Positions 47,439-49,247 of a DNA stretch of 64,000 nucleotides are shown piece by piece. The notes beneath the pieces are model-generated. The model made no database searches. It was not told the DNA's origin and saw only the letters and a list, made by a program, of their open reading frames with translations. Source of the DNA: Sporopachydermia quercuum (lineage: Eukaryota); NCBI GenBank assembly GCA_001599295.1, contig BCGN01000009.1, positions 310,001 through 374,000 on the forward strand, read 5' to 3'. Position numbers and translations under genes: made by a program. How positions within the stretch are numbered: the stretch's first letter is position 1; each line of letters begins with the position of its first letter.

Positions 47439-47813
47439 TTAACCACCGAAACCNTAAAGGGTTCTTCCTTGTCTCTTAAGAGCATAGACAACATCTAATG
47501 ATGTAACAGTCTTTCTCTTAGCATGTTCGGTATAGGTGACAGCATCTCTTATAACTGATTCCAAGAAAGACTTCAAAACACCTCTAACTTCTTCGTAGAT
47601 CAAAGCAGAGATACGCTTAACACCACCTCTTCTTGCTAATCTTCTGATAGCAGGTTTAGTGATACCTTGGATGTTATCACGAAGAATCTTTCGGTGACGC
47701 TTAGCACCACTAATAAATGTTAGCATAACTGCTTCAATACAACAACTTTAATTTCAAAAAGAATTCACATACGATTTTCCCAGTCCTTTTCCTCCTTTTC
47801 CTCTGCCAGACAT
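47439..47813 (-). CDS. HHF1: Histone H4 with one intron; exons 47813-47773 and 47709-47439
   Basis: The spliced product is [48 protein letters not shown]...GFGG. Intron 47710-47772 GTATGT..TGCTAAC..TAG. Confidence 0.97.
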
Positions 47814-48836
47814 TGTGAATAATAATTGATATAGATAATTGCTTAGTTATTCAGTAGATATCTACTAGTAAATAAATAGACCAGAGAAATAATAGAATAT
47901 CAATTGACTTGAAAAATTCTGCTTCCTGAGTGGGAAATCGACATAATATATATACAATTCTTTTTCCTCCCTTGTTGATAAACTTGATTCCAAAACAAAC
48001 AACATAGAATCAACAGTCAAACTTTCTTCGTTATTAATCTGTCATCACCTGTACTATAAAACCGCTGTTATGAGCTAAATTCCATACTAAATTCCACCCC
48101 TTGTACTAGGATTATCACTATACGAGTAATCAACATTCCGTCTCGCCTTGGTTTCCACAGTATTGAACCGCATACCTTGACAGAATACAGGACGTGACAT
48201 GGATAACTTGGGGATATTTTCATTAGAGTAATTATCGGTCTTAACAAATGTTTAGGATGATATATACTCAAAGGCTAAGTAAATAAGATCATTAACATTC
48301 TCAGATTTACTATGATGTAAGTAATTTTCAGACTAGAATGAGGTCTTATCAGATAACGAAATTTTCCTTTTTGGGGTTGAAATGAATCTCATCACCAAGA
48401 CCATTTGGGCATTTGCGTTTGAGGCAATAATATTCACTAGCTGAGTAACTTTGAGCATACAACTGACATTGCTTTACTTTGGAGATCTACCGATGAGACA
48501 ACAATTATTGGAATTTACTATTGATATCTTTTGAAAGCTAAAGAGACTTACTTAATTTTTCTCAGGTTGTTCTGATAACAAAAGCTTTTTGTTATTTTTA
48601 TTGTTTTGATATTCCGAAAGGGGAACATTTGACATTTTTACTCAAAACACACATGGAATGTATCAAGAGACGGGCTTTTTAAAGGATAAGTCAACATCGT
48701 ATATAAACTGATCAATTCCCGAAACAAGAATTTTCAAGGAAATATTTTGTTTTCTAACTAACTATTATTTTATTTTCTCTTTTTATTTTAAGTTAGNTAA
48801 CATCAAACGAAACAGTTAACTTAGAATTCATTCAAA

Positions 48837-49247
48837 ATGGCCAGAACAAAGCAAACAGCTAGAAAATCTACTGGTGGTAAGGCCCCCAGAAAGCAACTTG
48901 CCTCCAAGGCTGCCAGAAAGTCCGCCCCTACTACAGGTGGTGTCAAGAAGCCTCACAGATATAAGCCTGGTACTGTCGCTCTTAGAGAAATCAGAAGATT
49001 TCAAAAGTCTACTGAACTTTTGATTAGAAAGTTACCTTTCCAAAGATTGGTTCGTGAAATTGCCCAAGATTACAAAAACGATTTGAGATTTCAATCCTCA
49101 GCCATTGGTGCCCTTCAAGAATCAGTTGAAGCATATCTTGTCTCCTTGTTCGAAGACACGAACTTGTGCGCTATTCATGCCAAGAGAGTCACTATCCAAA
49201 AGAAGGATATCCAATTAGCTAGACGTCTCAGAGGTGAACGTGCTTAA
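48837..49247 (+). CDS. HHT1: Histone H3, divergently transcribed from H4
   Basis: [31 protein letters not shown]...; 136 aa, intronless. Confidence 0.98.

Follow-up and report, generated by a model that had tools for sequence, protein, structure and literature searches.

The window, by which we mean the whole 64-kb stretch of DNA analysed, carries a divergently transcribed pair of histone H3 and H4 genes in which the predicted H4 has a serine at position 13, and H3 has a tyrosine at position 78 and an asparagine at position 80, on either side of K79 (residues are numbered with the initial Met left out). We give an even chance to the reading that these are the functional core histone genes of a divergent yeast, whose rare changes are lineage-wide rather than the property of a dedicated variant. 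Under this proposal a fast-diverging, sparsely sampled yeast with the standard code would have a working core H3-H4 pair at this locus. Both genes would be driven from one 1-kb spacer, in which the TATA boxes are mirror images and a motif common to both sides stands about 105-110 nt upstream of each ATG, and a 63-nt intron inside codon 13 would mean that the Ser13 codon exists in the mature mRNA only. The products, if expressed and spliced as predicted, would assemble into ordinary nucleosomes. H4 S13 and H3 T31, Y78, N80 and A135 would then most likely be fixed in the general histones of the lineage, where they would be tolerated or compensated by the host's own Dot1 and Orc1-type readers.

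The product of the H3 gene matches Pfam family PF00125 over residues 7-132 (E = 1.5e-44) and the yeast H3 chain of a solved structure, 4kud_A, over residues 1-136 (E = 2.2e-79). The nearest yeast H3 proteins are 96-97% identical to it. When compared with P0059 and P0060, the nearest yeast H3 proteins found, 4 of the 136 positions differ, namely 31, 78, 80 and 135. The tail is that of these nearest proteins save for S31T, and the C-terminal change leaves an alanine at position 135. All tail lysines of H3 and H4 are kept, as is H3 K79. The initial annotation had reported F78Y and T80N flanking K79 together with T31, and we read the same residues in the ORF; codons 78 and 80 are unchanged in contigs from other runs (described below). 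The coordinates of the features discussed here are collected in Table 1.

Table 1. Features of the histone locus and of the genes compared with it. Positions are those of the window, except in the last row, where they are those of a metagenome contig.
Feature	Position	Strand	Description
Shared divergent H3-H4 promoter	47814-48836	.	1023 nt
GAATTTTTCAAG	starts 47919	-	106 nt upstream of the H4 ATG
GAATTTTCAAG	starts 48728	+	109 nt upstream of the H3 ATG
TATA boxes	about 47947-47958 and 48700-48706	both sides	137-141 nt upstream of the H4 and H3 ATGs
H4 exon 1	47813-47773	-	41 nt; ends with the TC of Ser13; GGAAAAGGA twice in tandem
H4 intron (predicted)	47772-47710	-	63 nt; 5' GTATGT, branch point TGCTAAC, 9 nt, then TAG
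H4 exon 2	47709-47439	-	Includes the TAA stop; first base T completes the Ser13 codon; histone-fold Pfam matches, tblastn
Histone H3 CDS	48837-49247	+	Uninterrupted ORF, 136 codons + TAA, without intron
H3 codons T31-T32 (ACT ACA)	48930-48935	+	Unchanged in the 104-nt contig of runs X1 and X2
H3 codons Y78 (TAC, 49071-49073), K79 (AAA), N80 (AAC, 49077-49079)	49071-49079	+	0 differences in the X1/X2 contigs carrying the window's copy
LPD1 intron	14243-13990	-	254 nt; removal restores the GGGPGG start of the nucleotide-binding fold
GFA1 intron	24399-24045	-	355 nt, after a 5-nt first exon (ATGTG); removal restores N-terminal MCGIFGY
H3-like gene of contig L001	342-767	+	54% GC contig; interrupted, tail and core divergent; same DYKND motif

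H4 must be spliced, and the only workable junction predicted from the DNA gives K12-S13-G14. Joining the two exons yields a predicted CDS of 312 nt that encodes 103 aa, the normal H4 length, and reads K12-S13-G14-A15-K16 with the Ser codon TC|T split by the junction. K5, K8, K12, K16 and K20 are present in the spliced translation, and so is the R17-H18-R19 patch. The Hat1 recognition motif is GxGKxG, in which position 13 is an "x", so that S13 need not disturb acetylation of K12. Alternative splice sites were ruled out by the stops that result from them: moving the 3' site to the next AG downstream shifts the frame into a stop, and with the 5' site moved to the one other GT nearby, a stop follows the junction. 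None of the alternative GT and AG sites that we read nearby restores Gly13. The claim of the initial annotation that Ser13 is created by a TC|T splice is thus borne out at the level of prediction. The model is further supported by the introns of GFA1 and LPD1, which are confirmed by protein conservation and whose signals it matches. Those introns begin with GTAAGT or GTATGT and have a NACTAAC branch point 10 nt before YAG, and the H4 intron is laid out alike. The distance from branch point to YAG is very short in all three introns.

Exon 2 of H4 is 97% identical to the best H4 matches, and S13 is the one residue of the protein that is unique with respect to the matches listed, every other residue being common among them. 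Ser13 is encoded by TCT, which lies two nucleotide steps from any Gly codon, and for this reason it is not a fresh single mutation. An H4 model from Chaetothyriales (P0285) loses homology just before G14-A15-K16. This hints that the Pezizomycotina gene in question may have an intron at or near codon 13, which would be the same position as that of the H4 intron in the window.

Contigs from two public runs of the same organism, X1 and X2, which belong to two studies, show 0 differences from the window over 47300-48917 and 48962-49399. Both the H4 junction and codons 78 and 80 of H3 lie within these stretches, which makes a sequencing error unlikely. The window's letters at 48920, 48923 and 48944 are absent from the contigs of both runs, all of them at synonymous third positions. 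Across the window there are 41 isolated single Ns (for example at 47454, 48797 and 49400). The N at 47454 is the last base of the codon for H4 Tyr98 (TAN), and at 49400 X1 reads A and X2 reads G, from which we conclude that the Ns probably mark or mask polymorphic or heterozygous sites. It could be argued from these Ns, one of which is within H4, from the three letters found in neither run and from a junction predicted from DNA that the odd residues are made by an assembly or sequencing error or by a wrong splice model. We consider such an artefact highly improbable, since contigs of two studies are identical to the window throughout the H4 junction and H3 codons 78-80, the three unmatched letters are silent, and the splice yields exactly 103 aa while its alternatives run into stops. 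The initial annotation had itself allowed for a sequencing error behind the substitutions, an option that this agreement makes unlikely.

Few residues of eukaryotic proteins are as constant as Gly13 of H4 and Phe78 and Thr80 of H3. We compared the window's H3 with two samples of H3 sequences, in which, taken together, Y78/N80 was found in 0 of 302 other motif instances. Of these 302, 297 have F at position 78 (2 have L), and 301 have T or S at position 80. In the first sample, comprising 148 motif instances from 119 H3 matches listed, YN occurs in the window's H3 only, the others being FT (109), FS (35), LT (2) and FF (1). The second sample contains 155 instances from 142 further representatives of 50%-identity clusters; F78 is present in all of them, with T80 in 152 and S80 in 3. 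Position 13 of H4 is Gly in 71 of the 72 matches listed, and the exception, P0285, has a mis-modelled N-terminus. The H3 and H4 protein match lists are dominated by fused or mis-modelled proteins, and the highest identity among the matches listed is 97%. An exact look-up of nine sequences in the protein collection (H3 in full and in part, and seven neighbouring ORFs) found none of them; as the collection did not return the window's own exon-2 product either, the absence of relatives there means little. Judged from the DNA and from these samples, the residues are real and very rare at near-invariant positions.

We also searched for DNA that could encode the DYKND motif, by means of a degenerate pattern, which gave a sole match in the metagenome collection, contig L001, and 0 matches in prokaryote genome contigs and in viral contigs. 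The H3-like gene of L001 has the motif in common with the window's H3; its organism is unrelated and the gene is clearly a non-canonical H3. Because this unrelated gene also carries DYKND, Y78/N80 has arisen at least twice. The substitution names H4G13S, H4 G13S, H3F78Y, H3T80N and H3 T80N were not found in the literature searched. The string H4S13 occurred there only in work that is apparently unrelated, judged from titles and abstracts, and nothing specific on budding-yeast Dot1 or histone loss was found in the same literature.

The available text of several papers places these positions on a surface with known readers. The nucleosome's LRS surface consists of H3 72-83 and H4 78-81 around K79, the Dot1 methylation site (PMC2587916, in part), and subtelomeric silencing is lost in H3 T80A (PMC3203891, in part). 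The accessible portion of PMC6602975 describes contacts of the Orc1 BAH domain with H3 Q76-T80, including a hydrogen bond to T80; in S. cerevisiae Orc1 the residues that make contact with H3 76-80 are W86, E84 and E140. Order in the H4 tail extends as far as G13, the outermost ordered residue, in the complex with Sir3 BAH, and in the Orc1 BAH complex the first visible H4 residue is H18, with G13 not ordered (same portion of PMC6602975). According to excerpts from PMC6703697, three positions, 31, 32 and 80, set the variant H3 of C. albicans apart from the canonical copies; variation is said to be tolerated at 31 and 80, the key functional residues being 31 and 32 together and not 80. The background given in the initial annotation on the K79 surface, Dot1, the Sir3 and Orc1 BAH domains and the Candida variant positions agrees with the available text of PMC2587916, PMC6602975 and PMC6703697. 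Its further claim that the substitutions are clustered on this surface stands in part. Y78 and N80 do lie within H3 72-83. For four H3 changes, the chance that two of them lie no more than two residues apart is 0.17, and the chance that two of them lie inside residues 72-83 is 0.04, and the clustering of the H3 changes by itself is weak evidence.

The spacer between the two genes is roughly mirror-symmetric, with GAATTTT(T)CAAG common to both sides as an inverted pair. No MCB, SCB or Spt10-type motif, in the forms known from S. cerevisiae, was found in the 1023-nt spacer, and the short direct repeats in it look like chance. Adjoining H3 on the minus strand, 49510-50757 encodes a protein of a haem-dependent oxidative N-demethylase alpha-subunit-like family (PF11927, E = 1.8e-90). 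An ORF of 358 aa at 11029-12102 on the plus strand encodes a Sir2-family deacetylase (PF02146, E = 4.7e-39).

The window has a GC content of 36%. A neighbouring protein with CBS and PB1 domains shows at most 51% identity to any of the 120 matches listed for it, its best named matches (47-51% identity) being from Sugiyamaella, Trichomonascus and Pachysolen. By its predicted proteins, the host is a budding yeast of a sparsely sampled, divergent lineage. The window's M1 aminopeptidase has CTG as the codon for Leu in its HELAHQWFGN zinc motif, and in the CBS/PB1 protein 2 of the 4 CTG codons are at columns where Leu or Ile is conserved; over 12 ORFs, 56 of 634 Leu codons are CTG. Translation of CTG as Ser, which would make H4 residue 10 a Ser, was rejected on the strength of the conserved Leu of the aminopeptidase. 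Since CTG codes for Leu, the yeast lies outside the CTG clade and uses the standard genetic code. To our knowledge Sir3 is confined to Saccharomyces-type yeasts, so that only an Orc1-type BAH domain could matter in this host.

Codon usage in H4 exon 1 differs from that in the rest of the pair. Its six Gly codons are one GGC and five GGA (GGT 0/6), all three Lys codons are AAA, and Leu10 is CTG. This compares with 8 GGT and 1 GGA, and 7 AAG and 1 AAA, in exon 2, and with GGT in 7/7 Gly codons and 13 AAG vs 2 AAA in H3. The difference between the exons is significant for Gly codons (Fisher p = 0.0014), and for Gly and Lys codons together exon 1 differs from exon 2 plus H3 with p = 4e-7. GGT accounts for 34/57 Gly codons in LPD1 and 28/49 in GFA1, and our counts agree with the contrast that had been pointed out between five GGA plus CTG in exon 1 and the GGT preference of these two genes. 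The perfect tandem of GGAAAAGGA encodes GKG-GKG and accounts for part of the odd codon usage. Slippage, a need of splicing or translation, and a separate origin of exon 1 are candidate causes of the bias.

The organism has at least two H3 genes. The second lies at the end of a separate contig, of 33 kb in X1 and 37 kb in X2 (records 5 and 9), which matches 48962-49246 (codons 42-136) with 32 differences over 285 nt, or 89% DNA identity, and has a TAG stop followed by a different 3' flank. A further contig of 104 nt covers 48888-48991 (H3 codons 17-51) with 3 differences, all at synonymous third positions. Relative to single-copy flanks its depth is 1.28x in X1 and 1.31x in X2, where a hand calculation gives an expected 1.26x on the assumption that the stretch is common to both H3 copies save for these three sites and that the window's path was lost in assembly. 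From these depths we infer that the second copy would also encode T31/T32. The differences between the copies are mostly transitions (in X2, with the three of the 104-nt contig included, 24 of 32 places), as expected of third-position changes. The copies differ at 3/104 positions in the 5' part vs 32/285 in the 3' part, a contrast that may reflect gene conversion. As gene conversion may explain the likeness of the 5' parts, the shared T31/T32 says little on residues 78 and 80. The change tallies of the second copy, A>C 1 and A>T 3, fit a set of all-synonymous changes and also Y78F plus N80T. One of these changes is located (49133) among the differences listed. The compared stretch has exactly three sites at which A>T is synonymous, and AGA>CGN would give A>C.

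The H4 stretch is at single-copy depth in the runs, so there is no identical H4 twin. Among the X1 and X2 contigs, which cannot prove absence, none was found to be 80% or more alike to H4 except its own and one 220-nt X1 contig of depth 2. Four of the differences listed for this contig are also those of organism C, which belongs to the study of X1, and the contig is probably carry-over. A search for all H3 and H4 loci had been proposed in the initial annotation; the contigs of X1 and X2 yielded the second H3, and tblastn gave no other H3 or H4 within the 64-kb window.

The initial annotation had left the choice between a specialised, co-transcribed variant pair and a lineage-wide change in core histones, with a preference for the former. 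Our results divide between the two. The second H3 gene and the odd, intron-bearing H4 favour a variant, while the inferred T31/T32 of the second copy, a host outside the CTG clade and the place of G13 at the edge of the Sir3 complex speak against one. The lineage-wide reading is supported by two proteins that are otherwise canonical (4/136 differences in H3, S13 alone in H4), by the classical divergent layout with symmetric promoter elements, and by the overall divergence of the lineage, as seen in the CBS/PB1 protein with its identity of at most 51%. It is further supported by a second H3 copy that appears to encode T31/T32 as well, by a Ser13 that is not a fresh single mutation, and by second-copy differences that are mostly transitions. 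Three points weaken it: the A>C and A>T tallies of the second H3 would also fit Y78F plus N80T, the gene conversion-like 5' identity reduces what the shared T31/T32 can tell, and an intron with odd exon-1 codons is atypical for a bulk budding-yeast histone gene as far as the available text of PMC3029354 goes. The first of these bears on the idea that the Y78/N80 H3 is a diverged paralogue of an H3 that is canonical at positions 78 and 80, with H4-S13 as the general H4. Such a copy-specific H3 variant would alter the K79 loop read by Dot1 and BAH proteins in a subset of nucleosomes, by analogy with the CTG-clade variant and independently of it. We regard it as unlikely, even with a second H3 gene on its own 33-37 kb contig (own 3' flank, TAG stop, 32/285 nt different), tallies that leave room for N80T and Y78F, the near-constancy of F78 (297/302) and T/S80 (301/302) in other motif instances, and the fact that position 80 is among the three that mark the C. 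albicans variant (PMC6703697, in part). Synonymous changes suffice to explain the same tallies in full, and the second copy appears to share T31/T32.

A true co-transcribed variant pair, with an S13 H4 and a Y78/N80 H3 that are both specialised and a canonical pair at another place in the genome, would account for the second H3 gene. It would also account for an H4 intron and exon-1 codons (GGT 0/6 vs 8/9, p = 0.0014) unlike those of typical budding-yeast histone genes (available text of PMC3029354), and for change sets that both lie on or beside the K79/H4-tail surface (as described in parts of PMC2587916 and PMC6602975). This account is, in our view, more doubtful than that of a variant H3 alone, as the X1 and X2 contigs, which cannot prove absence, give no sign of a second H4 and there is no identical H4 twin. 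S13 is two nucleotide steps from Gly in an H4 that is otherwise entirely ordinary. The strong symmetric TATA promoters and the biased codons (AGA, GGT, AAG) of H3 and H4 exon 2, typical of highly expressed genes, likewise argue against a specialised pair. A bolder proposal, to which we assign a small chance, is that of an independent specialised H3 outside the CTG clade, possibly with its neighbouring H4, whose Y78/N80 loop and S13 tail would retune the docking of Dot1 and Orc1-type BAH domains on a subset of nucleosomes, with canonical H3 elsewhere.

S13, Y78 and N80 in a natural yeast are a ready-made experiment on how far the surface read by Dot1 and BAH domains can change. Should the second H3 be canonical, ascomycete yeasts, most species of which lack such variants according to the accessible text of PMC6703697, would have in the window's gene a second and independent variant H3. 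If the changes are lineage-wide, as we prefer to think, the interest is smaller: they would be a data point for the co-evolution of histones and their readers in a fast-evolving yeast, and would add a rare intron in a budding-yeast histone gene.

Several known systems resemble the window's pair in part. The H3 variant of Candida albicans and CTG-clade yeasts, H3V-CTG (HHT1), likewise differs from the usual H3 at positions 31 and 80 and occurs in genomes with more than one H3 gene; most ascomycetes are said to lack variant H3s (both from the available text of PMC6703697). Unlike H3V-CTG, the window's H3 keeps position 32 as in P0059 and P0060 (T) and changes F78, and its host reads CTG as Leu. 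We rejected identity with H3V-CTG, given that CTG is Leu in the M1 aminopeptidase motif and the host is placed outside the CTG clade. The ascomycete variant H4E has N- and C-terminal tails that are divergent and longer, is encoded by a gene with several introns, and is described in the accessible part of PMC10878826 as not found in Saccharomycotina. Identity with H4E was rejected as well, the window's H4 having the normal 103 aa and one intron.

The intron has a partial counterpart in Yarrowia lipolytica, in which one H4 gene was the only intron-bearing histone gene among 8 Saccharomycotina species surveyed, according to the available text of PMC3029354. Like the window's H4, that gene has a single short intron near its 5' end, located at the first Pezizomycotina hot spot (PMC3029354, in part), whereas the intron of the window's H4 lies in codon 13. 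Pezizomycotina H4 models that read into the first intron lose homology after MTGR, which suggests that this hot spot is not at codon 13. The canonical H4s of Y. lipolytica, H4_2 and H4_3, have Gly13 and H3_1 has F78/T80 (PMC3029354). The canonical HHT-HHF pairs of budding yeasts share with the window's pair a divergent H3-H4 arrangement on a promoter of ~1 kb and gene products of 136 codons and 103 aa. Unlike them, the window's pair combines an H4 that has an intron and S13 with an H3 that has T31, Y78, N80 and A135.
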